This document shows, piece after piece, positions 18,354 through 36,457 of a stretch of 41,594 nt of DNA. The notes beneath the pieces were generated by a model. That model was not told the DNA's origin. It did no database searches and saw only the letters and a list, made by a program, of their open reading frames with translations. This DNA is from Gemmatimonadota bacterium (GTDB lineage: Bacteria; Gemmatimonadota; Gemmatimonadetes; Longimicrobiales; RSA9): the NCBI GenBank assembly GCA_040905425.1, contig JBBDRO010000003.1:21450-63043 (forward strand), written 5' to 3'. Within the stretch, counting starts at the first letter, position 1, and each line of letters begins with the position of its first letter. A program made the translations under genes and the position numbers.

Positions 18354-19466
18354 TCAGCCTCGTGGCCCGGTGGTCATCGGCGGCGCCACCTCCTCCGGCG
18401 CGCCAACGACTGCAGGCCTGTCATAATACCGCTTCTTGAAGTAGAGCGACACGCTCACCAGGCCGATGAGCACCGGTACCTCGACCAGCGGGCCGATCAC
18501 CGTGGCGAATGCCTCCGCCGAGTGGACACCGAAGACGGCAACGGCAACGGCGATGGCCAACTCGAAGTCGTTGCTGGCTGCCGTCAAGGAAACCGTGGTG
18601 TTCTGCGGGTAGTCGGCCCCGACCCACTTCGCCTTCGCGATGAAGAAGGTGATGAGGAACATGAGGACGAAGTAGATGGCCAGCGGGATGGCCACCCGGA
18701 CCACGTCCAGCGGGAGCTCCACGATCTGCTCGCCCTTGGACGAGAACATGACCACCACGGTGAAGAGCAGGGCAATCAGCGTGATGGGGCTGATCTTCGG
18801 GATGAACGTCTTCGCGTACCACTCCTCGCCCTTGCGGGGCACCAGGAGCGTGCGGCTCAGGAAGCCGGCCACCATGGGCGTGCCCAGGAAGATCAGGACG
18901 ATGCTGGCAATCTGCCACACGCCGATGTCCACCATCACGCTCTCCATACCGAAGAACGGCGGGAGCACGGCCAGGAAGAACCAGGCGTAGACGCCGTAGA
19001 AGAGGACCTGGAAGATGGCGTTGAAAGCAACCAGCCCTGCCACGAGGTCCGGGTCTCCTTCGGCCAGGTCGTTCCAGACCAGGACCATGGCGATGCAGCG
19101 GGCCAGCCCCACCAGGATCAGGCCCACGGCGTACTCGGGCATGTCGTACAGGAACAGGATCGCCAGGGCGAACATGACCACCGGCCCGATGACCCAGTTC
19201 TGGAAGAGCGACAGCCCCAGCACCCGCTTGTGACTGAGGACGTGGTGGAGCTTGTTGTATTTCACCTTGGCCAGCGGCGGGTACATCATGAGGATCAGGC
19301 CGATGGCGATGGGCAGCGGCGCCGGGCCCACCTTCACGCTGTCGATGGCCACCGCCGCTCCGGGCCAGACCCAGCCCAGGAGCACGCCGGCCGCCATGGC
19401 AAGGAAGATCCACAGCGTGAGGTACCGGTCCAGGATATTGAGCTTTACGCTCACTCGTTCCGTCAT
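18354..19466 (-). CDS. acr3: Acr3-family arsenite efflux transporter
   Basis: [56 protein letters not shown]. Confidence 0.95.
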
Positions 19467-19522: not shown

Positions 19523-21316
19523 TCACGCCGCCGTTCGGGCGGTGCTCTTCGAGCTGGCGATCATGGCCCGCAGGCTTTCAACGCCCCGGGGCTCGTCCAC
19601 CAGCCGTGGGACCACGTAGGTCCGCTCGGCCAGTTCGGAGGCCACCCGCTCGATCTGCTCCACCTCCTCGGCCGCCCGGCGCCGCAGCAGCGGGTCCGAG
19701 GGCCCGGCCGCCGCCAGGCTGTTGTTCACGACCCAGCCGTACGGCTCGATGCCGGCCCGGGCCAGGTCATCGGCCAGCGCGCTGGCTTCCAGCACCGGCG
19801 TGGTCTCGGCCAGCGTGACCAGGAGCACCCGCGTGTATTCGGGGTCCCGGAGCCGCATGAGGGGCGTGGTGACGGCGCCCTGCCGGTCGCCGGCGTTGCG
19901 CATGATCTCCCGGTGGTACGACCCCGCCGAGTCCAGCAGCAGGAGCGTGTGGCCCGTGGGGGCCGTGTCCATGATCACCAGCTCCCGGCGCGCCCCCGCG
20001 ACGACTTTCGAGAAGGCGTGGAACACCGCCACCTCCTCGGTGCACGGCGAGCGCAGGTCCTCCTCGAGGAGCGCGCGGCCTTCGTCATCCAGGTCCTTGC
20101 CGGCCCGGGCCAGGACTTTGGCACGGTACGCCTCGACCTCGGCCTCCGGGTCGATCCGCGTCACCTGAAGAAGACCCTCCGACTCGCCCACCACGTCGGC
20201 CACGTGGGCGGCCGGGTCCGTGGTGGTGAGGTGGACCGGGACGTTCCGCGACGCCAGCTCCACGGCCAGCGCCGCGGCCACCGACGTCTTGCCGACGCCG
20301 CCCTTGCCCATGACCATCACCAGCCCCCGCTCCCGCTGGACCAGCTCCTCCACCAGCGCGTCCAGCGCCTCGACGTCGGCTGGCAGGGCCGGCACGTAAT
20401 CGGCAGGGAGGGTAGCGCTGGCGCTCCCGTCGCCCACCGGCTGCAGCATCCGCCGCACCGCCGGGAGCCCCACGATGTTCTCACCACGGAGCGGGATCTC
20501 CGACGACGGCACGCTGCGCAGGTTCTCCGGCATCGCCTCAAGCGCCCGGCGGCCCGCTTCCTCCAGCCCCACGGCCAGCGGATCGGTCCGGTCGGTGGCC
20601 TCGAATACGCCATTGACGACCAGCTGCTGGTTGCGGAGCCCCGCCTCCGCCAGCTCACCGCTGGAGCGCGCGGCCTCGTTCAGCGCCCCCGTCTCCGCCC
20701 GGGTCACCAGGACCAGGAGCGTCCGTGCGGCGTCCGACAGCGCCCGCACCGTCTCGGCGTAGCGCTCCTGCTGCATCTGCAAGCCGGACGACGGGCCCAG
20801 GCACGACGCGCCCCGCTCGTTCGTCTCCAGGAACTGCGACCACGCGGCCGGCAGCCGCAGCAGCCGGAGTGTGTGGCCGGTGGGGGCCGTGTCGAACACC
20901 ACGTGGTCGAACCCGGCGGCCGCGCCATCGCCGCCCAGCAGCATGGTGAACTCGTCGAACGCGGCCACCTCCACCGTGCACGCCCCCGAAAGCTGCTCCT
21001 CGATCCCCGCCACCGTCTCGTCCGGCAGCACGCCCCGCACGGGGCCGATCACACGGTCGCGATACGCCTGGGCCGCTTCCTCCGGGTCGATGTTCAGCGC
21101 TTCGAGACCGTCCACGTCCGCGACCGGCCGGGGCTCACGGTCCAGCGGCGTACCCAGGACGTCGTCCAGGTTCGACGCCGGGTCCGTGCTCACCAGCAGC
21201 ACCCGCCGCCCCGCGTCCGCCAGCCGGACGGCCGCAGCCGCCGCCAGCGATGTCTTGCCCACCCCGCCCTTGCCCGTGAAGAACAGGTGCCTCGGTGCCT
21301 CGTCGATCCACTTCAC
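19523..21316 (-). CDS. arsA: Arsenical pump-driving ATPase
   Basis: Two GKGGVGKT, two DTAPTGH, metalloid-binding Cys in GACT, ASCLGP and SPCTEE. Confidence 0.95.
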   Translation of the reverse strand: MKWIDEAPRHLFFTGKGGVGKTSLAAAAAVRLADAGRRVLLVSTDPASNLDDVLGTPLDREPRPVADVDGLEALNIDPEEAAQAYRDRVIGPVRGVLPDETVAGIEEQLSGACTVEVAAFDEFTMLLGGDGAAAGFDHVVFDTAPTGHTLRLLRLPAAWSQFLETNERGASCLGPSSGLQMQQERYAETVRALSDAARTLLVLVTRAETGALNEAARSSGELAEAGLRNQQLVVNGVFEATDRTDPLAVGLEEAGRRALEAMPENLRSVPSSEIPLRGENIVGLPAVRRMLQPVGDGSASATLPADYVPALPADVEALDALVEELVQRERGLVMVMGKGGVGKTSVAAALAVELASRNVPVHLTTTDPAAHVADVVGESEGLLQVTRIDPEAEVEAYRAKVLARAGKDLDDEGRALLEEDLRSPCTEEVAVFHAFSKVVAGARRELVIMDTAPTGHTLLLLDSAGSYHREIMRNAGDRQGAVTTPLMRLRDPEYTRVLLVTLAETTPVLEASALADDLARAGIEPYGWVVNNSLAAAGPSDPLLRRRAAEEVEQIERVASELAERTYVVPRLVDEPRGVESLRAMIASSKSTARTAA

Positions 21317-21672
21317 GCTATACCCCCCACCGCGGACGTCTCGTTTCCAGTGATCTGCTCCAGCGTCGCCCGATCCGGATACTGCCCCGACGCCACCATC
21401 TCCTCACCCCACAGCACCAGCGGGAGACTGGCGGTGCCCCGCTCCTGGAGCGCCCGCCGCACCGCTGGGTTGCTCACGAACGCCCCCGGCTCCTGCGCCG
21501 GATTGTACCTCTCCACCGTCACGCCCCGCCGGATCAGCCAGTCCACGTCCGCCGAGAACCGGGTCAGTGCCGGGTCCACCTCCGGACCGCACACCCCCGT
21601 CGAGCAGCACATCGGCGGATCGTAGACCCGCAGCACCCCATCATTCATTCTTGCCTCGCCGTTCCGGTTCAT
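21313..21672 (-). CDS. arsD: Arsenite metallochaperone
   Basis: YDPPMCCSTGVCGP, RYN...P..F..N, G.YP; start may be 21648; overlaps the arsA GTG. Confidence 0.93.
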   Translation of the reverse strand: MNRNGEARMNDGVLRVYDPPMCCSTGVCGPEVDPALTRFSADVDWLIRRGVTVERYNPAQEPGAFVSNPAVRRALQERGTASLPLVLWGEEMVASGQYPDRATLEQITGNETSAVGGIA

Positions 21673-21681
21673 TTTCCGTTC

Positions 21682-22011
21682 TTACAGCGCCGCCACCAGC
21701 AGCTTCAGCCGCTCGAGCCCCGCTGCGTCAATGCAGTAGCACACCCGCTGGCCATCCACTTCGGCCCGCACCAGCCCCGCCTCCACCAGCACCTTCAGGT
21801 GCTGTGACACCGTCGACTTCGCCAGCGGGAGTCGGTCCGACAGATCCCCGTACTGGCAGCTCTCCTGGGCGGCCAGCAGCCGCACGATCCCCGCACGCAC
21901 TGGGTGGCCCATGGCCTTGGTCAGCACCGCCAGGTCCTCGTCCTCCCGTACGGCTCCCGGCACCGCGCCGGGCAGGTCGAGGGGCGGTCGGGTTGCATGC
22001 TGTGTGGCCAT
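21682..22011 (-). CDS. arsR: ArsR/SmtB transcriptional repressor
   Basis: [30 protein letters not shown]; ATG 22011 with AAGGAG RBS. Confidence 0.88.
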   Translation of the reverse strand: MATQHATRPPLDLPGAVPGAVREDEDLAVLTKAMGHPVRAGIVRLLAAQESCQYGDLSDRLPLAKSTVSQHLKVLVEAGLVRAEVDGQRVCYCIDAAGLERLKLLVAAL

Positions 22012-22023
22012 TACTCTCCTTCG

Positions 22024-22079
22024 TTGTTCGTCGATCACCGAACAATGATAGTGGGACGAGCCAGCATGATCAAGTCGGG
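22024..22079 (-). promoter_or_regulatory. Promoter/operator cassette copy 1 (drives arsR-arsD-arsA-acr3)
   Basis: Minus strand: CCCGAC-TTGATC-17 bp-TATCAT, overlapping the perfect palindrome TTGTTCG-N8-CGAACAA. Confidence 0.85.
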
Positions 22080-22153
22080 GGTTGCCCGCGACCGCCGAGG
22101 GGGGAATTCCCCACCCGCCGGTGAGTGTTTCGCCTCGATCCGATCGGGCTGGC

Positions 22154-22378
22154 TCACCCGCAGCACCCGCCCGGTCCCCCGGGACCACAGGCCGAGCGCC
22201 GGATCGGGTCAAGCCCTCGTGAGGATCCGATGACGAAGGCGCCGGTGAGGAGCTGGCGCGCGCTCTTCGCCCCGCAACGAGGACACGTGGGCGCCAGGCC
22301 GGCCGCCTTTTCCCCGATGGAGGCACGCACCTCGAAGGTGTCCTGACAACGAAGGCACTCGTACACGTAGGTCGGCAT
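22154..22378 (-). CDS. FmdB-family zinc-ribbon protein with a Cys-rich tail
   Basis: MPTYVYECLRC..FEV..CPRCG; tail ACGPGGPGGCCG. Confidence 0.85.
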   Translation of the reverse strand: MPTYVYECLRCQDTFEVRASIGEKAAGLAPTCPRCGAKSARQLLTGAFVIGSSRGLDPIRRSACGPGGPGGCCG

Positions 22379-22401
22379 AGTTCAGTTCTCCGGCCGGTGC
22401 A

Positions 22402-22776
22402 TCAGCAGGTGGCGGTCCCCGCCATCTGAGCGAAGTCGAGGGACAGCAGGGTCGTGACCTCCCGGTTGATCTCCCGCAGAAACGCGACCGCGTCCTGTTG
22501 CGTCCGGAAGTACTCCATCAGAGCGGGATGGGCGCGAACCCGTTGCTGGATATTCTCCAGAGTGCGCAGGTCTTCCGCCTCGAACCGCCCGCCCTGGACG
22601 CGCTCCTGCGCCTGCTCCAGCCCGGTGAGCAGCTCCATGGCCTCGGGGTCGCTCCGGATGGCCTCCAGCGCGTCCTCATGGCGGAGGAAGGCGGCCGAGG
22701 CCACGATGTTTGCCGACAGCACGGTCAGCGCTTCCGCCACGGCCGTGGGAATCTCGATGTCGTTCGTCGATGCCAT
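22402..22776 (-). CDS. YlbF/YmcA-family (Com_YlbF-like) protein with a single C-terminal Cys
   Basis: Helical pattern A...LSANI.AS..F......I.SDPEA..L....HP...EYF..Q; ends GTATC. Confidence 0.7.
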   Translation of the reverse strand: MASTNDIEIPTAVAEALTVLSANIVASAAFLRHEDALEAIRSDPEAMELLTGLEQAQERVQGGRFEAEDLRTLENIQQRVRAHPALMEYFRTQQDAVAFLREINREVTTLLSLDFAQMAGTATC

Positions 22777-22786
22777 CCGTCCACCC

Positions 22787-23203
22787 CTATCCACAGCAGC
22801 CGCCTCCACAGGCGGATGCATAGTCAAACCCGATTTCGCCGGAGAGCCTGTCGCCCAGGGCCTGGCAGAGCTCCTTCAGGCTTTCCTGTGCCTCCAGAAA
22901 CGCCCGCACAGAGGGCTGCTCGACCATGGACTGTTGGAAACGCCCCAGCTCCTGCTGCTCCTCCTCGCCGATGGCGCCTGAACGGAGGCCGGACGCCAGA
23001 GATGCGCGCCTGCGCCGGTACGCATGGATGGCGCTCTGTGCCGCCGCGTCGCTCCGCAGGGTACGTTCGGTTTCCTCGAAAGCCCGGTACGCATCCGTAT
23101 CGGCCAGCGCCCCCGCAAAGTCCCGGGCCGCCTGCTTCACCACCGTGTCCGGCGCCACGTCGAGCACCGTGCGGTCTCGGCGTCTGAAGGCGGGATCATT
23201 CAT
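22787..23203 (-). CDS. YlbF/YmcA-family protein with a Cys-rich tail
   Basis: AARDFAGALADTDAYRAF..L.SD.....P.VRAFLEAQE.L; ends ACGGGCCG; GGAGG RBS. Confidence 0.78.
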   Translation of the reverse strand: MNDPAFRRRDRTVLDVAPDTVVKQAARDFAGALADTDAYRAFEETERTLRSDAAAQSAIHAYRRRRASLASGLRSGAIGEEEQQELGRFQQSMVEQPSVRAFLEAQESLKELCQALGDRLSGEIGFDYASACGGGCCG

Positions 23204-23271
23204 GCAAACCTCCCTCGAGTCTGCTCCAGGTCCGGGCGTAGTCCCAGAGCTGTGTCACAGTACTCAGTTCG

Positions 23272-23327
23272 TTGTTCGTAGATCACCGATACATGGTAGT
23301 GGGACGAGCCGGCCCGATCAAGTCGGG
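23272..23327 (-). promoter_or_regulatory. Promoter/operator cassette copy 2 (drives ylbF-ylbF-fmdB)
   Basis: Minus strand CCCGAC-TTGATC-17 bp-TACCAT; operator (plus strand) TTGTTCG-N8-CGATACA. Confidence 0.85.
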
Positions 23328-23992
23328 AGTTGCCCCACCGAGGGCCGGCCGTTTCCCCACGGGTGGCCCCGGGGGTCGGTCCGTCGGGCCGTGATCAGGA
23401 ACAGGGTGTACTCACGGGCGGGGCCGGCCTGTTCGGTGCGGATCGTGTAGGCGGTCTCGGCCCGACCTTCCGTCAGGCCCGCCTGGTCGAGGACCGCGAG
23501 CAATTCCTTGCGGTCGAACCCGTGGTGCACGTTCGCCGCGGGATCCTCGTGGAACGACCCGTTCTCGGTGTCGAGGTCGCACAGCGCCAACCAGCCGCCC
23601 GGCGTGAGGTGGTCGGCCAGGAGCCGGATGGCGGGTGTGATCTCGGGGATGTGGTGCAGGGTCAGCAGGGAGACGATGGCGTCGTACCGGCGAGGCAGGC
23701 GGGGGGTGTCGGGATCGAGTCGCAGGACGCGGCCCTGGGGGTGCCGTCCGGCGCGGAGCTTCTCGCGGACGCGGTCCAGCATCCCGTCGGACGTGTCGGC
23801 GAAGGTCACGCTCGAGACATGGGGCAGCAGCTCGAACCCGAGCAGTCCGGTGCCGCTGCCGAACTCAAGGATGTCCATGTCTCGGTCCAGCGGGACGGCT
23901 TCCATGATCCGCTGCGCGACGACCGCCGCGCGATCGATCCGGGCCGGGTCGTCGTCCCAGGTCAGGGCCTTCGCGTCGAAGTCCTCGTTCAC
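23318..23992 (-). CDS. Class I SAM-dependent methyltransferase
   Basis: FDAKALTWD, LEFGSGTGLL, DTSDGML, TLHHI, DL..E.GSFH, HHGF; GTGA overlap with cfa. Confidence 0.88.
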   Translation of the reverse strand: MNEDFDAKALTWDDDPARIDRAAVVAQRIMEAVPLDRDMDILEFGSGTGLLGFELLPHVSSVTFADTSDGMLDRVREKLRAGRHPQGRVLRLDPDTPRLPRRYDAIVSLLTLHHIPEITPAIRLLADHLTPGGWLALCDLDTENGSFHEDPAANVHHGFDRKELLAVLDQAGLTEGRAETAYTIRTEQAGPAREYTLFLITARRTDPRGHPWGNGRPSVGQLPT

Positions 23993-25137
23993 GCCCAGGC
24001 CTCCGCCCGGCTGAGTCGGCGGATGGACCGGTAGCCGCCTGGAACGCCGTGCCTGGAGAGCACGATCTGCCAGAGCTGGATGTGCCGGGCTCTGAACGCG
24101 CCGGCGCTGGACAGCAGGTAGAACCTCCACATCCGGTAGAACCGCTCGTCGTATTGCTCCCTGATCCGGTGCCAGTTTGAGGTGAAGTTCTCGTGCCAGG
24201 CCAGGAGCGTGCGGTCGTAGTGTGCGCCGAAGCCGTGCCAGTCCTCCATGACGAAGAGGTCCTCCATCGCCGGTCCGAGCTGGGCGATGGACGGAAGCAT
24301 GCCGTTCGGGAAGATGTAGCGCTGGGTCCAGGGCTCGGTGCTGGTGGCGGAGCGGTTGCCGCCGATGGTGTGCAGGAGGAAGAGGCCGTCGTCGGCCAGG
24401 CAGCGGTGGGCCACCTCCAGGTACGTCCGGTAGTTCTTGTAGCCCACGTGCTCGATCATGCCGATACTGACGATCCGGTCAAAGGTGCCCTCGAGGTCCC
24501 GGTAGTCCATGATCTCGAACTGCACCGGAAGCCCCTCGCACAGGCGCCTACCCAGCTCCACCTGTTCCTTCGACACCGTGACACCGAGCACTTCCACGCC
24601 GTACCGCTCCGCCGCGTACCTGCCGAACGCCCCCCAACCGCACCCGATGTCCAACACACGCATCCCCGGTTCCAGCTCGAGCTTCTGACAGATGAGCTCC
24701 AGCTTCTGCTCCTGGGCCTCGTCCAGCGAGTACGCATCCTCCCAGTACGCACAGCTGTAGTTCATACGTGCGTCCAGCATGTTACGGAACAGCTCGTTGC
24801 CCCGATCGTAGTGCCGCTCCCCGATCTCGAAGGCGCGGCGCCGGGACTGGAGGTTGAGCGTCCGAGCCATGACGACCGTCATCAGCGTGGACCACGAGCG
24901 CCGGACCTCCCGGTCGAGACGCGCCCGCAGGACCCGGGCAATGAACTCGTCCAGCTGGTCGGCCTCCCACCACCCATCCATGTATGCCTCGCCCAGCCCG
25001 AGTTCCCCCTTCGTCAACACCCGCCGGAACAGCCGCGGGTCCTTCACCTGGATGTCCCACCGGTTCGGACCGTCTACAGTTATTTCGGCTTTATCCAGAA
25101 GGTCCTCCACGAGGGCGCGGAAACGATCTCGACTCAT
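23989..25137 (-). CDS. cfa: Cyclopropane-fatty-acyl-phospholipid synthase
   Basis: GELGLGEAYMDGWW, HYDRGN, MNYSCAYW, LDIGCGWG, SIGMIEHVG, YIFPNG, HY.RTL..W; AAGGAGG RBS. Confidence 0.93.
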   Translation of the reverse strand: MSRDRFRALVEDLLDKAEITVDGPNRWDIQVKDPRLFRRVLTKGELGLGEAYMDGWWEADQLDEFIARVLRARLDREVRRSWSTLMTVVMARTLNLQSRRRAFEIGERHYDRGNELFRNMLDARMNYSCAYWEDAYSLDEAQEQKLELICQKLELEPGMRVLDIGCGWGAFGRYAAERYGVEVLGVTVSKEQVELGRRLCEGLPVQFEIMDYRDLEGTFDRIVSIGMIEHVGYKNYRTYLEVAHRCLADDGLFLLHTIGGNRSATSTEPWTQRYIFPNGMLPSIAQLGPAMEDLFVMEDWHGFGAHYDRTLLAWHENFTSNWHRIREQYDERFYRMWRFYLLSSAGAFRARHIQLWQIVLSRHGVPGGYRSIRRLSRAEAWA

Positions 25138-25185
25138 CGGTAGCCTCCTTCGACGGGCCCGGCAGGACACCGAGAACTATGTTCG

Positions 25186-25247
25186 TTGTTCGTCGATACA
25201 CGAATAACGGTAGTATAAGGTGCCCGGGGGCCCCGGATCAAGTCGGG
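25186..25247 (-). promoter_or_regulatory. Promoter/operator cassette copy 3 (drives cfa-methyltransferase)
   Basis: Minus strand CCCGAC-TTGATC-18 bp-TATACT; operator TTGTTCG-N8-CGAATAA. Confidence 0.8.
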
Positions 25248-25373
25248 AAAACCTCCATTTCCAGGAGGGGGAACGCCCTACGCGGACAGCCGCCGCCGCG
25301 GTGCCATGAGGGTTCGGATCAAGATGTCACGGTCGTCTCCCCGGGAGGGATCGCCACTCTCAAGCGTCCGGGC

Positions 25374-26298: not shown

Positions 26299-26943
26299 AT
26301 GACCCCGAAGGACATAACGATCTACGATCCCGCGATGTGCTGCTCGACAGGCGTGTGCGGACCGGAGGTCGACCCCAAGCTGGCGCGATTCTCGGCCGAC
26401 CTGGACTGGCTGTCCTCCCGGGGCGTCACCGTACGGCGCCTCAACCTCGCCCAGGAGCCGGGGGCCTTCGCCGAGGACGCCGATGCCAGAGCAGCGCTGC
26501 AACGCAGCGGCGAGTCTGCCCTCCCGCTCATCAAGGCGGGCGATGCCGTCGTCAGCAGCGGCGCCTACCCGTCGCGCGATGAGCTCGCGGCCTGGGCCGG
26601 GCTCGCGTCCACCCCGAGCCTCTACACTGAAGCAGTGGCCGAGCTCGTCGCCATCGGCGCGGCCCTCGCCTCGAACTGCGATCCCTGCTTCAAGTTCCAC
26701 TACGACAAGGCGCGCAAGCTCGGCGTGTCACGCGAGGACATGCTGCGGGCCGTCACGACCGCGCAGAACGTCAAGGACACCCCGGCGCGGGCGATGCTCG
26801 ATCTCGCGCAGCGCTACCTTGGGCGTGAAGATGAAGCGCAGGACGGAGCAGCGCCCGCCGGAGCAACGCCCGCCGGCACGAGCGGGTGCTGTGGGTCCGA
26901 TGCGGCGCCCATTGCCATCGGGAATACGTCGAGCTGCTGCTGA
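26299..26943 (+). CDS. arsD: ArsD fused to an AhpD/CMD-like CxxC domain
   Basis: N-terminal YDPAMCCSTGVCGP; C-terminal ELVAIGAALASNCDPCFKFH...A.KLG; tail GCCG...SSCC; AAGGAG RBS. Confidence 0.85.
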   Translation: MTPKDITIYDPAMCCSTGVCGPEVDPKLARFSADLDWLSSRGVTVRRLNLAQEPGAFAEDADARAALQRSGESALPLIKAGDAVVSSGAYPSRDELAAWAGLASTPSLYTEAVAELVAIGAALASNCDPCFKFHYDKARKLGVSREDMLRAVTTAQNVKDTPARAMLDLAQRYLGREDEAQDGAAPAGATPAGTSGCCGSDAAPIAIGNTSSCC

Positions 26944-28360: not shown

Positions 28361-28438
28361 GGCTCACCCGCAGCAGCCGCCCGGCCCCCCGGGACCACAG
28401 GCCGGACACCAGGGCGGGTCGATCCTCGTGAGGATCCG
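28361..28438 (-). repeat. Degenerate copy of the 3' end of the FmdB gene (22151-22229)
   Basis: ggctcacccgcagca.ccgcccgg.cccccgggaccacaggccg...cctcgtgaggatccg is shared; encodes ACGPGGPGGCCG*. Confidence 0.85.
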
Positions 28439-28448
28439 GGGAAACGCC

Positions 28449-28793
28449 CTACTTTCCCGCGCCCGGGGCGGTCGATAGGCCCACCACCCGCCCCATCGCT
28501 TCACGGTCCGGGTACGCCCCCGTCGCCACCTTCTCCTCGCCCCAGAGAACCACCGGCAGCGATCGGGTCCCGTTCGTACGGAGGTCGCGTCGGACCACGG
28601 GATTCTCAACAAATTCCCCAGGTTCCCGCGAGGCGCTGTAGCGCTGTACGGCCACGCCCTGCTTCTTCAGCTACTCCAGGTCCGCAGCGAAGCGGGCCAG
28701 TCTCGGATCCAACCGGGGCTCGCACACCCCTGTCGAGCAGCAGAGCGCGGGATCGTATACCTGGAGCATCTTTCCATTCACCTTCTCGGTCAT
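28449..28793 (-). pseudogene. arsD: arsD pseudogene with an in-frame TAG at the conserved Trp
   Basis: MTEK..YDPALCCSTGVCEP..ARFAADLE* (TAG 28671-28673), then same frame LKKQGVAVQRY..EPGEFVENP..SLPVVLWGEE.VA.GAYPDRE. Confidence 0.85.
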
Positions 28794-28870
28794 TGCAATC
28801 GAGTCCCTTTGGAGTCCCGGCTCAGCGCCTCGAGGCAACGCGGCCCGGCGACAGTGTGGGCGTCCCATTT

Positions 28871-28926
28871 TTATTCGTTATTTGACGAACGATGGTAACC
28901 GGGCCGACGCCCTGGCTCAAGTCGGG
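28871..28926 (-). promoter_or_regulatory. Promoter/operator cassette copy 4 (upstream of the arsD pseudogene)
   Basis: Minus strand CCCGAC-TTGAGC-17 bp-TACCAT; operator TTATTCG-N8-CGAACGA. Confidence 0.8.
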
Positions 28927-29032
28927 AACCGTCCCGCACTCCTTGGAGGGAAAAGCGCCACGGAAGTCTGGGCGGTCTCCCGATCCCCAATGAACGCGGT
29001 CGCGCGTAAATTGACGAACGGGATGGAAGCCA

Positions 29033-29470: not shown

Positions 29471-32400
29471 TCAGCCGGCCACCGGTACGAGCTTCACGTG
29501 GGTGTCGTAGAAGCTGACGCTGCCGCCGACGGGGTCGATCATGCAGGTGTTCTTCAGGGCGGGGTCGACCCACATGGCGGCGTTGGCGTGGATCCCCTTT
29601 GCGCGTCGCGGCTCGCCCTGGACGGTGTGGCCGTCGATGAGCATGTCGGCGGCGCCGGTGGCCCAGTGGCCGAAGCCGAGGGGGAAGCTGATGACCCCGG
29701 GCCGGACCTGCTGCGTGATCTGGACCTTGCCGACCATGGGCTTGGTTCTGCCGTTGCCGAGCGGCCATTCTCCGGCGGTGTTCGTGGCGCTCACGACCCG
29801 GACCTCCTGCCCGTGCTCGAGGCCGAGGCGTTGCGCATCGGTCGGGTGGACCTGAATGCCGTTTTCGGGCATGAGGGCGGAGAGCCACGGGTCCGCGATG
29901 GTGCGGCTCTTGGTGTGGACGATGGTCCGGTTGGTGATCATAGCGAGCCCGTAGCCGTCACGAAGCGCGTGGGGCTCGTTGCCGTGGAAGTCCCGCACGG
30001 GCATCCAGGTGGCGAGGCCGGGATGATGCTCGCCGGTGCCGCTGTGGATCTTCGAGGCCGTCTTCTCCTGGTAGAGCGAGAGCTGGGCGGCGTGGGGGTG
30101 GGCCAGCAGGTCCCCGTCGTAACCCAGCTCGTGGTCCTCGAAGCGACCGCCACGATTGAGGGCGTACACCACCCTGGGCCACATCTCTTCGCCGACGATG
30201 CGTCGCCAGCGGTCCGGGTCGAACACGCTGGCCGGCAGGTGTCGTCGGGCACTGAGAAACAGCTCCATCTCCCGGTGGTCGGCTTCCGGGAGGTTCTGTG
30301 AGCCGTCAGGCTTCTCGCCGAACGCGATGTTGCCGACGCAGCGGAGCATGAATTCGTCCATGTGCCGCAGGTGCGTTCCGTTCCCGAAGCCTTCTTCCCC
30401 GAAACCGGGAAGCCCCATCTGTTCCGCGATGCCCAGCATCATGGTCTCGAAGCAGATCGGCTGGGTCTCGCCGAACACCGTGCACGCTTCCGGGATCGGC
30501 GCGATCACCGGCTGGCGGATCGGGTTGGACTTCCACGTCATGTTGGGATGGCTCTTCTGGAACTCCCAGCGTTCGAGGTAGGAGGTGTCGGGGAAGATGT
30601 AGTCCGCGTACATGGACGTGGGGCCCACGAGGATGTCGCTGGCCACGAAGAGGGGGACCGTCGCGAGGTCGCAGAGGATCTCGATGTTGGTATGGCCCGC
30701 CGGGAGCGCATACGTGGGGGCACCCATGTACAGGAAGAACGCCTTGATGGGATAGGGGTACGCGTCGCCCATGGAGGGGATGATCTCTTCATAGACGTCG
30801 GACGACAGCGGGTACCAGTTGCGCCGGGCGGGGTACCCCTCGAAGAGCGTGGTCTGCTCGTAGTCCACGTCGTGGCGGATGGCGCTGATCCCGAAGGCGG
30901 TGGCCTTGCCCGGCTGATCCTTGAGCTGGAACCAGCCGCCCTTCCCTTCGATGTCCCAGCTGCTGGCTTTGCACATGCCGCCCTTATGGTCGAAGTTCCC
31001 GAGCAGCATGTTGATGGTCATCCACGCCAGCACGTTGTAGAAGCCGTTGGTGTGCTGGGCGGGCCCGCGGTGGATATCCACCGCCGCCCGCTTGCCGTGG
31101 CTGGTCAGCTCCCGCGCCACGTCGATGACGTGTCGGGGCCGGACGTCGGCGATCCGGCACCATTCCTCGATGGTGTGCCGGTGGCATTCCTCCCGGAGCA
31201 GCTGGAGGCCGGTCTTGACGGCCGTGCCATCGGGCAGCGTCGTGTCCGCGTACAGGTCGCCGTGCACGGGGCGGGTGGCGTCGTTGGGGTCGAAGGCCAC
31301 GGGGCGGCCGTCGACCATCACCACGAGCTCGTTGCCGTAGGCGAGGCCGACGTCGCGGGCCCGGACGAACCCGCCGGGCCGGCCTTCGGTGACATCCACG
31401 AGCCACGTGGCGTTGACCCAGCTCGGATCTCCGTTGGCGTTGGCGGCGGCCCTGTTCGCGCACGAGACGAAGTCCCGGTCGAATCGGTCGTTGTCCAGCA
31501 TCCACCGGATCATGGCCATGGCCAGCGCGGTGTCGGTGCCCGGCTTCAGGGGCAGCCAGCGCCAGGACTTGCTGGCCAGCTTGCTGAAGCGCGGATCGGC
31601 GCACGCCACCTTCACCCTCCCCGACACCAGGTTGTTGGTCAGGCGCGGGGACCGGTTGGGCGGACCGTAGTTGGCTTCGAACAGGTTGGCGCCCACGAAC
31701 AGGATGAAGCGGCTGTTCTCCGTGTCGGCCTGCCAGTAGAACTTGCTGCCGCCACCGAATTCGCCCGTGGCGGTGTCGTACTGCTCGCTGATGGCCTTGC
31801 ACGTGAAGTAGAGCGAGCCCTGGCAGACGGTGGTGTGGCCGTGCAGGTTGACCGAACCGAGGCCCGCTGCGAAGCGCTTGTAGAACTCGCTGCGCCCGGC
31901 CTTCAGTCGGCCGTAGGCCATGAGGATCTGGTTGTTCTTCGGACCCAGGTCGGGGTGGTCCGGGTCGATCAGGACGTCGAGGTGGTCCGCGTGCCGGCGC
32001 TTGAACGCCTCCACCAGCGCCTGCTTCCGGGCCCGGTCTTCCTCCGCCAGGATCCCGTCCACGTCCGCGGCCATCTCCTTCGCCACGGCCGGGTCCCGTA
32101 GCGCCATGATCTGGTCGAGACCCTCCACCACGCGATCTTCCTCGCCGGGCGCGTCCGCGAAGAGGCGACCCCCCTCGCAGATCTCACGGACCGCCTGCTC
32201 GAACGGCATGGAGACCCAGCGGTTCTCGCCCCGCCGGCCGGCCCGCTTGAGGACCCGGCGCAGCCGGTAGGGATCATAGGCCGTCTGCAGGCCGGCCTGG
32301 CCCTTGGGGCAGATGGCCCCGTCCACGGCCACGGCGTCGTCGAGCGGTACGGCCTCACGCAGGTGAGGCACCAGGGTCCAGGGGCTGTAGGGGTTCCCAT

Positions 32401-32674
32401 CGATCTTGGTGAGGACCCCGTCCTGGATCTTGCACTTGATCCCGCAGCCGGTGTTGCACTGGAGGCAGGTCGAGTGGATCACGTTGCCCGGATCGGCCAG
32501 GTCGTACGGCGCATCGGGCCGATCGCTGCGCAGCACGGCCCCGTGCCGCCGGGCCACGGCGCCCGACGCCGTTCCGGGTAGGACGAGGCTGCTGCCGAGG
32601 AGCGCGCCTCCGGCGAGGAACTCCCGGCGAGACTGGCGCTTCGGGTTCGGCGTGGATCCGGACTGCGGGCTCAT
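29471..32674 (-). CDS. Tat-exported DMSO-reductase-family molybdopterin oxidoreductase catalytic subunit, TtrA/SrdA-like (1067 aa)
   Basis: Tat SRREFL; CLQCNTGC...GAICPKG [4Fe-4S]; GNPYSP; HGHTTVCQ (putative Mo ligand); YADYIFPD..YLE.W; GFGHW; true start ATG 32674 overlaps the upstream TGA. Confidence 0.88.
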   Translation of the reverse strand: MSPQSGSTPNPKRQSRREFLAGGALLGSSLVLPGTASGAVARRHGAVLRSDRPDAPYDLADPGNVIHSTCLQCNTGCGIKCKIQDGVLTKIDGNPYSPWTLVPHLREAVPLDDAVAVDGAICPKGQAGLQTAYDPYRLRRVLKRAGRRGENRWVSMPFEQAVREICEGGRLFADAPGEEDRVVEGLDQIMALRDPAVAKEMAADVDGILAEEDRARKQALVEAFKRRHADHLDVLIDPDHPDLGPKNNQILMAYGRLKAGRSEFYKRFAAGLGSVNLHGHTTVCQGSLYFTCKAISEQYDTATGEFGGGSKFYWQADTENSRFILFVGANLFEANYGPPNRSPRLTNNLVSGRVKVACADPRFSKLASKSWRWLPLKPGTDTALAMAMIRWMLDNDRFDRDFVSCANRAAANANGDPSWVNATWLVDVTEGRPGGFVRARDVGLAYGNELVVMVDGRPVAFDPNDATRPVHGDLYADTTLPDGTAVKTGLQLLREECHRHTIEEWCRIADVRPRHVIDVARELTSHGKRAAVDIHRGPAQHTNGFYNVLAWMTINMLLGNFDHKGGMCKASSWDIEGKGGWFQLKDQPGKATAFGISAIRHDVDYEQTTLFEGYPARRNWYPLSSDVYEEIIPSMGDAYPYPIKAFFLYMGAPTYALPAGHTNIEILCDLATVPLFVASDILVGPTSMYADYIFPDTSYLERWEFQKSHPNMTWKSNPIRQPVIAPIPEACTVFGETQPICFETMMLGIAEQMGLPGFGEEGFGNGTHLRHMDEFMLRCVGNIAFGEKPDGSQNLPEADHREMELFLSARRHLPASVFDPDRWRRIVGEEMWPRVVYALNRGGRFEDHELGYDGDLLAHPHAAQLSLYQEKTASKIHSGTGEHHPGLATWMPVRDFHGNEPHALRDGYGLAMITNRTIVHTKSRTIADPWLSALMPENGIQVHPTDAQRLGLEHGQEVRVVSATNTAGEWPLGNGRTKPMVGKVQITQQVRPGVISFPLGFGHWATGAADMLIDGHTVQGEPRRAKGIHANAAMWVDPALKNTCMIDPVGGSVSFYDTHVKLVPVAG

Positions 32675-33861
32675 GCGGCACCTCGGGTGTTCGTCGCGCT
32701 CCTGGTTTCGACGGCGCGGTTGATCTTCCGACCGATGTAGAACACCGCCATGCCCACGGCCAGCAGGAACAGGCCTACCAGGTACTCCATGGGCGTGGCG
32801 CGGTAGATGTAGCGGAGGCGTTCGTGGGAGAAGGCTTCCTGCAGGCCCTGGATCTCCGCCACGGCCTGGCCCGGGATCAGCACGTTGAGACGGGCGCTCA
32901 CGAACGTGATGGCCACGAGCAGCGCCCCCGCGGCCCAGAGTCGGGGCCGTCGGGAAGCCAGCAGGATGAGTGACACCACCCCACCGATGGCCAGGTGCAC
33001 GATCCAGAAGACCCACCAGTACGGCCCCCAGAGCACCAGTTCCACGGCCGGGGCATCGCTGATGGGGTTCCACAGGGCGATGGAGAACTCAGCGAACTCG
33101 AACACGAAGTACACGCACAACCCGACGATGGTGATGAGCCGGAGCCGCCGGACGGCCGCCTCGTGCTCCTCGGCGCTCTCGTCCGCCCGGGTCAACATCC
33201 GGACCAGCAGGAGGGTGGCCGCGCCCGCGGTGATGGCGGACGTCAGGAACACCATGGGGAGCAGGGCGCTGTGCCAGTATGCCTTTGCATCCACCACGCC
33301 GAAGAACGCGCCGCTCTGACTCGGGAACAGGACGGAGAACACCAGCGCGAGGAACAGCACCGGCTTCAACCACTCCCGGTCGTCGCGGAAGCTCAGCAGC
33401 CAGGCGACGACGGCGCAGAGGGTGAAGATGTTATACATCCACGCGTTGAACGCCATCATGCTGGTGAACGCCGGCGACGTGAAGATGCGATGCGCTCGCT
33501 CCATGTGGCCCAGATCGAGCCAGACGCCCATGAACGCAGGGATGATGGCGGCAACGCTCAGCACGATGACCGTCCGGAGCGCGCGTCGGCTCCGGAACCC
33601 CGGCAGGTCCAGGATGTACCCGCCGGCCCCGAGCACGAACGCCCCGCCGGCAATCCCCACGCCGTGGAAGTAGAGAGCCACCCACAACCCCCAGGGCACG
33701 TAGGAGCCGTATCCGGCGGGCAGGTGACCCTGCGTAAACCGCAGGTAGACGCCGATCGCGCCCAGGATGAACAGGCCGATCCACAGCGCCCATAGACCCG
33801 TTCGAACGCCGCGTCCCTGTATGCTCCAGCTACCTGGAGCAGGTGTCGTCATTGTGGTCAT
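32671..33861 (-). CDS. NrfD/PsrC/TtrC-family membrane anchor
   Basis: VPWGLWVALY, DLGHMER, TSMM, YWHSALLP..FL.SA; multiple TM helices. Confidence 0.9.
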   Translation of the reverse strand: MTTMTTPAPGSWSIQGRGVRTGLWALWIGLFILGAIGVYLRFTQGHLPAGYGSYVPWGLWVALYFHGVGIAGGAFVLGAGGYILDLPGFRSRRALRTVIVLSVAAIIPAFMGVWLDLGHMERAHRIFTSPAFTSMMAFNAWMYNIFTLCAVVAWLLSFRDDREWLKPVLFLALVFSVLFPSQSGAFFGVVDAKAYWHSALLPMVFLTSAITAGAATLLLVRMLTRADESAEEHEAAVRRLRLITIVGLCVYFVFEFAEFSIALWNPISDAPAVELVLWGPYWWVFWIVHLAIGGVVSLILLASRRPRLWAAGALLVAITFVSARLNVLIPGQAVAEIQGLQEAFSHERLRYIYRATPMEYLVGLFLLAVGMAVFYIGRKINRAVETRSATNTRGAA

Positions 33862-33915
33862 GGTTCAAAGCTCGGCCGCGTCGGTCGCCTCGATCCGTCG
33901 CCTCGACCAGTCGAA

Positions 33916-34824
33916 TCAGTCAATGTAGAACACGCGCGGGCGCGTGCCGTGGTGTGGGAGCAGCGTGTGCACGTTCTCCCGTGCGATCAGCTCGGTGACC
34001 AGCGCGTCCGGATCGCTCTGATCGCCGAAATACGTGGCCCTGCCGATGCACGTGGTGGTGCACATGGGCAGCTGACCCACCTCCAGTCGGTGCAGGCAGA
34101 AATGACACTTCCGGGCATTGCCCACGGGCGACTGGTGGTGATCCCGGTCCCAGTGCTTGGCGTACTCGTGGCTCGGGCGTTCCTCCCAGACCGACGCGCC
34201 CTCACCCAGCGTGGCCGGACTGTCCGCATTCTGCCCGCCGTCCGCATCCGTGTAGTAGAGACCGAAATCACTGGTCCGCGCTCCGTACGGGCAGGCTGTC
34301 AGGCAGTACCGACACCCGATGCACTGGTCGTAGTCGATGACCACGATGCCGTCCGGCCGCTTCCATGTGGCCTTGACGGGGCAGACGGGGATACACGGCG
34401 GCGCGTCGCACTGCATGCACGGGCGTGGCGTGAACCGGATGTTGATGTTCGGGAACTCCCCTGACTCCTCCGTCACGACCGGGCGATACACCACGCCGGG
34501 CGGCAGCTTGTTCTCCGCCACGCACGCGATGGTGCAGGCGTGGCAGCCCACACACTTGCGACGGTCGAGGACCATCACCCACCGGCGCTCCTCCACCGGC
34601 TTGGCCATCGCCCGTTTCAGATCCCGCTGCATCCGAAGCAGCAGGTCCTCGCCCTGCTCCTCGGGGATGTTGTTGAGGACCGGGAGCCGTCGGACGGTGT
34701 CGGGCCCGGTGGGGTCCGCCGGTGGCGGCGCCAGCCGGTCCTTCACCACCACGGCCCCCGCCCCGGCCACCCCCAGGCCCGCCAACGCTCCAGCCCTGGC
34801 GAACTCCCTGCGACTCATGCCCAT
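33916..34824 (-). CDS. 4x[4Fe-4S] electron-transfer subunit (TtrB/NrfC-like) with a Tat signal
   Basis: MSRREF; [41 protein letters not shown]...CTTTC; ATG 34824 with GGAG RBS. Confidence 0.92.
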
Positions 34825-34897
34825 GGCTCGGTCTCCATACCTTCTGTCCTCGTCCGCCGGCAATGCCCGCGCGCTTCGCCCGCGACCCCTCCCGGCT

Positions 34898-35275
34898 TCA
34901 GCTCATCCCTTCCGTGGTGACGGTGCGACTCTCGCCGGCGGCCTTCAGCTCGTCCTCCACCCACAGGAACGCCGCCATCATGGCGGGCCACCCCATCGTG
35001 GGCGCCGCCAGAAGCGCGGCGTGGCGCAGCTCGTCGGGCTGGAACCCCGCCGCCAGCGCCTTGCGGGTGTGGGCGTGCACCGCACCCTCGTGGCGCATGC
35101 CGATGGCCATGCCCAGCTTCAGGAGATGGACCAGCCGGGCCTCCAGCGGGCCCGCCTCGGTGGCAGAGCGGCCGAATCGCTCGTACGCCTCCGCCATCTC
35201 CGGGTACCGGCTCGTAAGCTGCTCGAACTGCACGGGCGGCTTGACCGCCTCGACGCTCCCGGCCTTCCTCGTCAT
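34898..35275 (-). CDS. Carboxymuconolactone-decarboxylase (CMD/AhpD-like) family protein without Cys
   Basis: YPE....Y, AGPL.....L.KL..AIG...EGAVH.H.RKA...G...EL, PT.G.P; GGAGG RBS. Confidence 0.85.
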
Positions 35276-35332
35276 CGGTCCTCCAGTGATGATGGTTGGT
35301 TGCTGGACGCGACGGCCCCGCGCCGCCGTCCG

Positions 35333-36457
35333 TCATTGTGGCCCCTTCGGTCGATGGAATGGTAGTGAGTGAGGGCCGACCGCGGTGTCGGGAATATCCC
35401 GCGGCAGGGTGTGGGGCGCTCTCCACTGGTTCTCGTTCGTGACGAGCTCGATCTCGGCGCTCATCAGCATCTTCCGCGGGCACCGGTGCCCCAGGCCGAC
35501 GGCCTGGAGAAGGCGGAGCCTGGACTTGGGCTCGTAGACGGCGCAGAGCGGCTCGGGCAGCCCGTCGTGGGGGCTCGTGTACGCGGTGGCGAAGCGGAAG
35601 GGCGAGCGGTGGGCCAGCAGGCGGAGGATGCAGGCGTCGTCGATGAAGGGCAGGTCGCACGTCACCACCAGCCACGCGGCCCCCGGGTGCTCCTGCATGG
35701 CGGACAGGATCCGGCCCGTCGGCCCCAGGCCGAGGAAGCGGTCCTCGATCCGCGGCACGCCATCGAACGCCTCCTCATCCGCCTGGTCGGGCCGAACGGA
35801 GAGGAAGGCCGCGTCGCAGTGGGCCGAGACGAGGCGGTGGAGGCGGTGGAGGCGGTGGACGTCGAGGGCGAGGGGCCCGCCGCCCGCCAGCACGAGGCCG
35901 TACAGCGGGACGGCGGCCGCCGCCTCCCGCCAGAAGGTCCGGATGAACTCGGTGATCCCGTCCACGTCGTCGCGGGGGAATAACGGCACGGGGACCTCTT
36001 CCGGAGATGACCCTCCCACGCACGCCTGTACGTTCCGGAATCGCCCGTCCCGCCATTCCCGCTCCGCCCGCCCCTCCCTGTCGAGGACCAGGATCTTCGG
36101 GAGGTCGCTGTGCTTGTAGCCCTCGACGAAGACCCAGTCGCAGTCGAGCAGGGTGAACGCCGCGTCGAACAGCCCCAGGGGCCGCGCGGAGATCCGCGCC
36201 GATCGCCCGGCGTCGTTGATGAGGATGTCCACGGCCCCGGCCGCCACCGCCCGGGCGGTGTCCTTTCCCGGCCGGTCCATCTGGAAGCCGTGGGCGTCGT
36301 GCTTCACGTAGCCGATCCGGTGCTCCGGCGACAGCGCCTCGATGAGCTCCACCAGCAGCGTGGTCTTCCCCGAACCCGAGTAGCCGCACACGGCCAGCGC
36401 GTGGGGATGCGGGTTGGGTCGTTCCTGCGGGTCGACAGGGCTCAACGCGTTATCCAC
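35333..36457 (-). CDS. mobB: MobB-MobA fusion (molybdopterin guanine dinucleotide biosynthesis); MobA half apparently degenerate
   Basis: GYSGSGKTTL, VKHDAHGF..D.PGKDT, VEGYK; then LVLAGG, GP...I, CDLP, EPLCAVY, but no S.RMG.DK or N.NTP motif. Confidence 0.78.
   Translation of the reverse strand: MDNALSPVDPQERPNPHPHALAVCGYSGSGKTTLLVELIEALSPEHRIGYVKHDAHGFQMDRPGKDTARAVAAGAVDILINDAGRSARISARPLGLFDAAFTLLDCDWVFVEGYKHSDLPKILVLDREGRAEREWRDGRFRNVQACVGGSSPEEVPVPLFPRDDVDGITEFIRTFWREAAAAVPLYGLVLAGGGPLALDVHRLHRLHRLVSAHCDAAFLSVRPDQADEEAFDGVPRIEDRFLGLGPTGRILSAMQEHPGAAWLVVTCDLPFIDDACILRLLAHRSPFRFATAYTSPHDGLPEPLCAVYEPKSRLRLLQAVGLGHRCPRKMLMSAEIELVTNENQWRAPHTLPRDIPDTAVGPHSLPFHRPKGPQ
35831..35857. repeat. 9-bp tandem repeat x3 (GAGGCGGTG; encodes HRL x3 on the minus strand)
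   Basis: Read directly; lies shortly after the LAGG motif of the MobA domain. Confidence 0.85.

Follow-up and report, generated by a model that had tools for sequence, protein, structure and literature searches.

The three-gene unit

We analysed a 41.6 kb stretch of DNA (41,594 nt, G+C 68.6%; hereafter the window, meaning its whole length) from a Gemmatimonadota bacterium (assembly GCA_040905425.1, contig JBBDRO010000003.1). Among its arsenic-resistance (ars) genes lie three small genes on the minus strand, hereafter the trio, which encode two YlbF-like proteins and an FmdB-type zinc ribbon, each with a C-terminal tail that ends in or near cysteine. We found the same unit beside arsA in other phyla, and our results suggest, tentatively, that its products might form a complex in which the thiols of the tails bind As(III).

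Gene 1 (22787..23203) encodes a protein of 138 residues with a helical YlbF fold, a conserved internal cysteine (Cys113) and the tail ...IGFDYASACGGGCCG, which ends ASACGGGCCG and has the pattern C-x3-CC-G. Gene 2 (22402..22776) was listed as an open reading frame starting at a TTG (22402..22827), and alignment with 16 orthologues favours the ATG at 22776, which gives 124 residues ending ...LDFAQMAGTATC, the last of them a cysteine (...AGTATC). The third gene (22154..22378) encodes a ribbon protein of 74 residues with CxxC pairs at residues 8/11 and 32/35; its tail is ACGPGGPGGCCG (C-x8-CC-G). The gaps measure 10 nt between the gene 1 stop and gene 2 and 23 nt between gene 2 and the ribbon gene, and a GGA-type ribosome-binding site is present in each. 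Both YlbF-like proteins exceed the gathering cut-off of Pfam PF06133 Com_YlbF (57.4 bits for gene 1 and 42.7 for gene 2; cut-off 23.9), and the ribbon exceeds those of Pfam PF09723 Zn_ribbon_8 (46.4 bits; cut-off 34.4) and NCBIfam TIGR02605 FmdB (46.8 bits; cut-off 31.3). A first-pass annotation had described a unit of two YlbF proteins and an FmdB ribbon with these tails and had proposed the family assignments for confirmation; the reading frames, family scores and tails all agree with it.

The cysteines of the tails are strongly conserved. C136 and C137 are invariant in an alignment of 21 gene 1 sequences, where conservation of C132 and of the internal C113 is 90% or more; the terminal cysteine is invariant in 17 gene 2 sequences, some of which end in GCC; and C8, C11, C32, C35 and C64 are invariant in 16 ribbon sequences, with C72/C73 at least 90% conserved. 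Together the three tails of the window hold seven thiols: C-x3-CC from gene 1, the terminal cysteine of gene 2 and C-x8-CC from the ribbon. The third protein resembles the FmdB family (TIGR02605/PF09723) in scoring above both cut-offs and in its four invariant ribbon cysteines, but it differs from that family by a CGPxxGPGCC(G) tail that is specific to the ars-linked copies aligned. FmdB tails vary widely and are typically of low complexity, and we know of no established function for the family.

Thirteen sequencing runs were found, all of sediment, soil or mat metagenome DNA. In metagenome contigs from four runs, gene 1 has 17 non-synonymous and 15 synonymous differences among 40 of 145 differences, and the tail cysteines are untouched by any of these 40 (105 more lie outside this set). 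This is a partial sample of short metagenome contigs in which strains are mixed, and we therefore drew no estimate of selection from it.

An ars-type promoter of its own

The trio is preceded by a promoter/operator (23259..23335, minus strand) that overlaps the stop codon of the methyltransferase gene upstream. It consists of a -35 box TTGATC (23321-23316), a 17 nt spacer, a -10 box TACCAT (23298-23293) and an imperfect 7-8-7 inverted repeat, and is one of four related copies in the window (repeat families D2 and D4, and an alignment of the copies). The second copy (22011-22087, minus strand) lies directly 3' of the ribbon gene and before arsR1-arsD-arsA-acr3; there, TTGATC-17-TATCAT is followed by TTGTTCG-N8-CGAACAA, the best inverted repeat of the set. 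The stretch 23259-23335 is 87% identical, over about 70 nt, to 22020-22087. The other two copies, also on the minus strand, stand before a gene pair for a cyclopropane-fatty-acid (CFA) synthase and a methyltransferase (25173-25250) and before an arsD pseudogene (~28862-28930). All share one layout on the minus strand, CCCGACTTGA(T/G)C, a spacer of 17-18 nt, TAyCrT and a 7-8-7 inverted repeat. An apparent joint in the read data, by which the sequence seemed to go back from 23335 to 22100, was rejected as an artefact, the paralogous arsR1 promoter lying just outside the stretch examined.

A scan with a promoter consensus gave three sites where 0.4 were expected, the arsR1 and CFA copies among them. 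The copy of the trio is absent from that list: its TTGATC-17-TACCAT matches 8 of 12 positions, just under the threshold. The recurrence of the element before three other ars units of the window nevertheless upholds the earlier claim that the trio has an ars-type promoter of its own, and ArsR presumably binds these operator copies. No terminator was found between the ribbon gene and the arsR1 promoter. Because of this, and because the operator type is shared, one may regard the trio as the leading member of a tandem pair of units preceded by operators of one kind.

Related loci in other bacteria

Scanning one genome per species with a gene 1 profile, we found 23 related loci in 20 public metagenome-assembled genomes (19 Chloroflexota, 1 Spirochaetota); their neighbours were counted by tblastn with the window proteins and by extraction of open reading frames. 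Gene 2 stands directly 3' of gene 1 in 20 of the 23 loci; in the three exceptions, the sequence breaks off within gene 1. The ribbon gene was found in 16 loci; 18 loci extend 300 nt or more past gene 2, and of these only L016 and L034 are without it. arsA lies upstream of the module in 18 loci, and in the remaining five no more than 1.25 kb of sequence is available on that side. The commonest order is arsR-arsD-arsA-(acr3 or arsC)-gene 1-gene 2-ribbon. The predicted association of the trio with ars genes is thus seen well outside the window, and the retention of gene order and tail cysteines in other phyla places the trio far beyond chance.

The tails are kept in larger samples too. A word-indexed search gave 15 relatives of gene 1, and all 14 full-length ones end CGxxCCG, while the fifteenth (116 residues) stops before the tail. 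A HMMER scan of 1.84 billion representatives with the gene 1 profile returned 1,328 at E≤1e-3, 296 at E≤1e-10 and 51 at E≤1e-30. Among the best 150 of these 1,328, 107 carry the CC pair among their last four residues and 125 a cysteine at one of those places, and 76 have at least three cysteines among the last 12 residues; most of the remaining sequences look like truncated fragments. The same 150 include nine natural fusions of gene 1 and gene 2 (260-269 residues), whose linker has at least one cysteine in all nine and a multi-cysteine motif in six.

Several other genes accompany the module. Thioredoxin-coupled ArsC genes stand beside it in nine of the 23 loci. A fourth small protein of about 90-100 residues (starting PIVVQIIGAPVACAEG...; for example L029:4461-4766), which has no match in Pfam or NCBIfam, accompanies it in 15 loci, either 3' of the ribbon gene or in the interval from arsA to gene 1. 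A minority of the loci have genes for iron-sulfur (Fe-S) assembly 3' of the module: DUF59/FeS_assembly_P in four of the 23 loci (L015, L017, L028 and L029), with an NCPGCP motif in the DUF59 proteins of L017 and L029, and SufC with SufBD in L018 (11020-12740).

In two loci, gene 2 and the ribbon gene are separated by one for a CoaC/HFCD-type flavoprotein (L012:6736-7305 and L017:2152-2718). It scores 90 bits with PF02441 and weakly matches the peptide-cysteine decarboxylase CypD (50 bits; cut-off 215). In both loci, all three module proteins end in cysteine, without the final glycine. One might then see the tails as substrates, whose C-terminal cysteines would be modified, by oxidative decarboxylation or cross-linking, into a peptide-derived product, and the low complexity typical of FmdB tails would suit such a role. 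Yet the flavoprotein occurs in just these two of the 23 loci and not in the window, most tails end with a glycine after the CC, and no other maturation genes were seen. We regard this explanation as the most improbable of all those considered.

Fold, pairing and comparison with the Ric proteins

The AlphaFold model of the gene 1 protein is a helical bundle with a disordered tail and a predicted local distance difference test (pLDDT) score of 82.1. Its ten best Foldseek matches in the PDB, with 2pih, 6prh, 2iaz, 6prk (chains A and B) and 2oeq among them, are all YlbF-family chains (YmcA/RicA, RicF, YheA, SP1372 or DUF964), at probabilities of 0.99-1.00, target-normalised template modelling (TM) scores of 0.63-0.76 and E-values from 4e-3 to 0.5, none of them below 1e-3. 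The YlbF fold that had been proposed for both proteins is therefore backed by structure for gene 1, and gene 2 was judged by its sequence profile. In a profile-to-PDB sequence search, gene 1 scores 36 bits with RicA/YmcA against 17 with RicF, and gene 2 scores 35.8 bits with YheA and 32.6 with RicF against 24 with RicA (2oee and 6prk were matched). These profiles reverse an assignment made from the tails, by which the long tail had marked gene 1 as RicF and the single cysteine had marked gene 2 as RicA: gene 1 is nearest to RicA/YmcA and gene 2 to YheA/RicF.

One of the natural fusions was modelled as two compact domains (pLDDT 87.7, predicted TM score 0.79), with disorder in the linker and tail only. 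The existence of such fusions, the confident two-domain model and the tight coupling of the two genes are indirect evidence that the gene 1 and gene 2 proteins pair. As for the ribbon, its predicted complex with the YlbF pair, made from our own alignments, scored 0.34 (runs of 0.34, 0.35 and 0.32; best control 0.01), with a partner pLDDT of at least 63 and runs agreeing in at least 55% of contacts. This score concerns the ribbon against the pair and not the YlbF-YlbF interface, and gives weak support: 58 of 80 solved complexes pass the same mark and so do 2 of 110 mismatched pairs, but scores of 0.60 or less occur in just 7 of the 80 and in both of these mismatches.

The closest characterised comparison is the RicAFT complex of Bacillus subtilis, formed by RicA (YmcA), RicF (YlbF) and RicT (YaaT). 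The YlbF-like proteins of the window share the Pfam family and fold of its structures (PDB 6PRK, 6PRH and 2PIH), and both systems have two paralogues with cysteine-bearing C-terminal tails and a third protein with cysteines, although the heterodimer of the window is putative. The differences are also clear. The third protein is here a zinc ribbon of 74 residues and not a PSP1-domain protein, the genomic link is with arsenic genes and not with RNase Y, and the tails are short CC-terminated motifs. In RicAFT, the ligands of cluster 2, a [4Fe-4S] cluster, are RicT C167, RicF C134/C146 and RicA C141, according to PMC6751060, where the cysteines of the three proteins share the cluster as the first-pass annotation had stated. 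That annotation had also placed the ribbon in the position of RicT, for which complex prediction gives weak support. No PSP1-domain (RicT) gene was found in the window, and the host does encode a PSP1/RicT-like protein, from a single PSP1 gene on another contig.

These likenesses raise an alternative in which the trio makes a Ric-like complex, whose YlbF and ribbon tails would jointly ligate one or two [4Fe-4S] clusters and which would serve to sense arsenite or redox state, or to carry or repair Fe-S clusters in an arsenite-tolerant way. Both proteins are of the YlbF family, gene 1 with its fold; the tail cysteines of RicF and RicA do ligate a cluster together with one cysteine of RicT; the three tail cysteines of gene 1 and the one of gene 2 would make four ligands; and Fe-S assembly genes stand beside some of the related loci. 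As(III) attacks Fe-S proteins, which gives a role of this kind some sense in an ars operon. But the invariant feature of the tails is the terminal CC, and the third cysteine is often missing, as the counts of 107 and 76 among the best 150 representatives show. Moreover, Fe-S assembly genes are minority companions where arsD-arsA is constant, and the island has no RicT. We consider this alternative serious, if on balance unlikely.

A two-gene version in haloarchaea

A tblastn search of PLSDB matched 11 haloarchaeal plasmids, of which nine loci were inspected (all except H4 and H6). In eight of the nine, hcsL is followed by hcsS, both overlapping the end of arsD-arsA. HcsL ends ...EFAxSxGGGCC; HcsS has about 62 residues, ends ...IGxxYGxxC-x4-5-CC and is similar to the final helix and the tail of gene 1. 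The HcsL model NF041416 is the highest-scoring curated family for both YlbF-like proteins of the window (71.2 bits for gene 1 and 51.7 for gene 2), and both scores fall under its cut-off of 140; by this comparison, the window proteins are relatives, not members, of the HcsL family. The HcsS model NF041415 gives 13.8 bits on residues 107-137 of gene 1, under its cut-off of 55. The possibility that HcsS is the counterpart of the ribbon was rejected, as HcsS weakly matches the C-terminus of gene 1 and not the ribbon.

The two systems have much in common. Both consist of a YlbF-like helical pair with C-terminal cysteines, linked to arsD-arsA; one tail of the pair has the pattern C-x(3-5)-CC, its partner ends in C or CC, and both tails follow IG-x-(D/E/N)-(F/Y). 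As for the Cys-Cys ending of the halo-CC-star proteins HcsL and HcsS, gene 1 ends CCG and gene 2 in a single C, and several orthologues end exactly CC. Their position directly after arsD-arsA is not that of the window, where the trio lies upstream of arsR-arsD-arsA. The window unit differs further in that both partners are of full length, an FmdB ribbon is added, the host is a bacterium, a separate promoter upstream of arsR serves the unit, and the neighbouring ArsA is of the classical type and not ArsA_halo. The literature searched held no paper on HcsL or HcsS among the matches listed, where the acronyms were unrelated.

On three of the nine inspected plasmids, a gene for an 'Rdx family protein' lies 3' of hcsS. 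This gene, the thioredoxin-coupled ArsC genes beside nine of the 23 bacterial loci and the OsmC-like and AhpD-like redox domains in a divergent ars unit of the window would fit a thiol-disulfide relay, in which the vicinal cysteines of the tails keep those of ArsD and ArsA reduced or feed arsenate reductase. The C-terminal redox tails of some flavoprotein reductases offer a comparison. Yet the trio has no recognisable redox-active fold, the window has no dedicated reductase, and the linkage is to arsD-arsA and not to arsC, so that we hold such a relay to be improbable.

Horizontal acquisition and host background

Ribosomal protein S3 assigns the host to Gemmatimonadota: among its best 120 matches, all those with a name are Gemmatimonadota or Longimicrobiales, at 87-92% identity. 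The gene 1 profile matched one of 401 sampled Gemmatimonadota genomes (148 genera), the source genome itself, and 60 relatives from its family or order yielded no orthologue of the trio. Because of these two results on gene 1 and the trio, the module was very probably acquired horizontally by its Gemmatimonadota host. Weak YlbF matches occur in 8 of 61 genomes (the host and the 60 relatives, which include one unpublished genome, G038).

The host differs from the other carriers compared in its ArsA. Its assembly (96.7% complete) has a sole ArsA, the classical type found in the window. In contrast, for the module-adjacent ArsA proteins of L012, L018, L024 and L030, ArsA_halo NF041417 gives higher scores (630-647 bits) than TIGR04291 (510-528 bits). 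An extra conserved cysteine in the helix after the first P-loop (TSxxC...) is present in all six module-linked ArsA sequences aligned, those of the same four loci and of the haloarchaeal plasmids L042 and L044. The module-linked ArsA of Chloroflexota and Spirochaetota has an extra cysteine in its second half as well, whereas the window ArsA has alanine at both places.

The host also encodes, on contigs C100, C39 and C33 (L001, L053 and L054), a tail-less YlbF beside prmC/prfA, a PSP1/RicT-like protein (108.8 bits) and an RNase Y (682.8 bits, above the cut-off). These three may constitute a housekeeping Ric-type system outside the Firmicutes. They might also provide targets for the trio, if its YlbF pair docked on the RicT-like protein and RNase Y of the host and redirected RNA processing under arsenic stress; in B. 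subtilis, RicAF is required for the RicT-RNase Y complex, as stated in PMC10245838. A post-transcriptional regulator of this kind would fit poorly with a module that moves horizontally with arsD-arsA into Chloroflexota, Spirochaetota and haloarchaea, that occurs in a single sampled genome of this phylum, and whose host already has a tail-less housekeeping YlbF. We regard it as very improbable.

There are three other FmdB copies in the host, two of them without a cysteine tail. The third, on contig C54 (L040:1408-1647, minus strand), is an FmdB ribbon with a Cys/Gly-rich tail (...GGCCGGGACGLN) between amidohydrolase and TetR genes, with no ars context.

A possible role in arsenite binding

The reading that we favour, tentatively, is that the trio proteins assemble into a heteromeric complex whose thiol tails bind As(III) and which cooperates with ArsD and ArsA. 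The trio would be expressed as one arsenite-inducible operon. Its gene 1 and gene 2 products would form a YlbF-fold heterodimer, joined by the zinc-ribbon protein in a small cytosolic complex. The flexible C-terminal tails would then build three-sulfur sites that capture cytosolic As(III), or Sb(III), and the complex would either buffer the metalloid or pass it to ArsD/ArsA for export via Acr3. In this scheme, the joining of the ribbon, control by ArsR, As(III) binding and hand-off are what we infer from the patterns described above.

Three observations lead us to favour As(III) as the ligand. First, the terminal vicinal cysteine pair is invariant, with a third cysteine usually 3-8 residues away. 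Second, arsD-arsA is the constant genomic partner of the module. Third, known As(III) sites are three-coordinate cysteine sites of like build: PMC11868830 gives a vicinal pair and a third cysteine for AfArsR (C95/C96/C102) and CgArsR (C15/C16 with C55), and the three-coordinate site C32/C34/C37 for R773 ArsR.

ArsD itself offers another parallel. The metallochaperone (PF06953) is encoded in the same operons and also has a vicinal cysteine pair and a third cysteine; its CC-x4-C motif is present in the ArsD copies of the window. The trio differs in its helical bundle, where ArsD has a thioredoxin-like fold, and the trio proteins gave no match with ArsD hidden Markov models. The trio is found together with ArsD and not as its replacement. 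By analogy, it is a candidate functional analogue of ArsD, a soluble As(III) carrier for ArsA.

Several results weigh against this reading. As(III) binding is read from cysteine patterns, and the nearest characterised relatives, RicA and RicF, use their tail cysteines to ligate [4Fe-4S]; the Fe-S assembly genes beside the module (DUF59 in 4/23 loci, SufC and SufBD in L018) point the same way. The score of the ribbon complex is a weak pass. Tails of this kind are not specific to arsenic, because the host has another Cys/Gly-tailed FmdB ribbon away from any ars genes. On the ninth haloarchaeal plasmid (Haloferax alexandrinus, L043, 4941-5494), the neighbours of hcsL-hcsS are genes for a cation-translocating P-type ATPase and for a transposase, and not arsD-arsA. 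The usual ArsA partner may be missing in the window, because its ArsA is of the classical three-cysteine type and module-linked ArsA is halo-like. Finally, the fourth small protein of the related loci gave no match in the host genome with the one query used. Even so, we place As(III) binding and the Ric-like Fe-S complex above the other explanations: the thiol-disulfide relay, the regulator linked to RNase Y and the tails as substrates are all less likely.

A bolder version of As(III) binding may also be considered. The trio might be a self-contained, horizontally mobile and arsenite-induced thiol-tail relay, whose seven thiols would deliver As(III) to any ArsA present. This goes further than a complex that simply works with ArsD and ArsA, and we regard it as doubtful.

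The arsenic island around the trio

All genes of the unit that follows the trio are on the minus strand. arsR1 (21682-22011), identified by Pfam, is downstream of the trio and co-directional with it. arsD (21313-21672) scores 112 bits with the NCBIfam ArsD model (cut-off 90), arsA (19523-21316) 784 bits with TIGR04291 (cut-off 650), and acr3 (18354-19466) 427.6 bits with ACR3 (cut-off 282.8).

Traces of a second unit lie further upstream of the trio. An arsD pseudogene (28449-28793, minus strand) has an in-frame TAG at 28671-28673, where ArsD has a conserved tryptophan. It is followed by a remnant of the 3' end of a ribbon gene (28361-28440, minus strand), about 80 nt long and out of frame, with the CGPGGPGGCCG codons and the stop; this remnant is repeat D5, 85% identical over 65 nt to 22151-22215. 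The pseudogene product is 54% identical to that of the window's own arsD, against 35-37% to the ArsD of the related Chloroflexota loci, and a derivation from a Chloroflexota-type operon was rejected on these figures. Pseudogene and remnant look like a deleted second copy of an arsD...ribbon unit.

Upstream of the trio are a CFA-synthase-family gene (NF008686, 621 bits; cut-off 400) and a class I methyltransferase gene (together 23318-25170, minus strand); a lipid-modifying enzyme of this family under apparent arsenic control is unusual. The divergent unit mentioned above consists of arsR2 and genes for an OsmC-like protein, an ArsD-AhpD fusion, a small membrane protein and a CysK-like protein. 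The fusion (26299-26943, plus strand) joins an ArsD domain (PF06953, 127 bits) to an AhpD/CMD domain and ends SGCCG...SSCC. Between 11460 and 17503 (plus strand), two tandem KaiC-like ATPase genes and a histidine kinase gene run straight into arsR4-arsM-arsN2, with ArsM (NF008823, 363 bits) and ArsN2 (164 bits) both above their cut-offs. A further cluster, adjoining arsR3 (29471-36457, minus strand), encodes a TtrA-like molybdopterin oxidoreductase, TtrB/DsrO-like and NrfD-like subunits, a CMD protein and MobB-MobA. The TtrA-like molybdoenzyme scores 449 bits, far under the TtrA cut-off, and merely 97 bits with ArrA.

Novelty and significance

ArsD and ArsA have been studied for decades. In the openly accessible main texts searched, no paper dealt with YlbF-like or FmdB proteins in ars operons; PMC6016940 treats the housekeeping YlbF as a biofilm protein and is unrelated to ars. 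The claim that no such system had been described in ars clusters holds for these publications, but not for curated databases: NCBI models already name the haloarchaeal pair after arsD-arsA as hcsL/hcsS, a pair that is itself uncharacterised. New here are the third conserved subunit (the ribbon), the autonomous promoter of ars type, the classical ArsA as neighbour and the host phylum. The value of the window is that it presents the module uncoupled from its usual position and its usual type of ArsA, under an ars-type promoter of its own, in a phylum whose other sampled genomes gave no match.

More generally, small cysteine-tailed proteins accompany ArsD and ArsA in several phyla and in haloarchaea, with no published function that we could find. 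If their tails bind arsenite, they would constitute a new soluble step in arsenic detoxification, which may be relevant to arsDA operons without a pump. Should the ligand be an Fe-S cluster instead, the shared-cluster chemistry of the Ric type would extend past the Firmicutes and past RNA processing. And if the relay that delivers As(III) to any ArsA were true, the module would represent a widespread and unstudied class of ArsA accessory factors, with hcsL/hcsS as its two-gene form; it could account for ArsA-based resistance in operons without a pump, and the YlbF/Ric fold would be a general scaffold for shared metal or metalloid sites built from tails.

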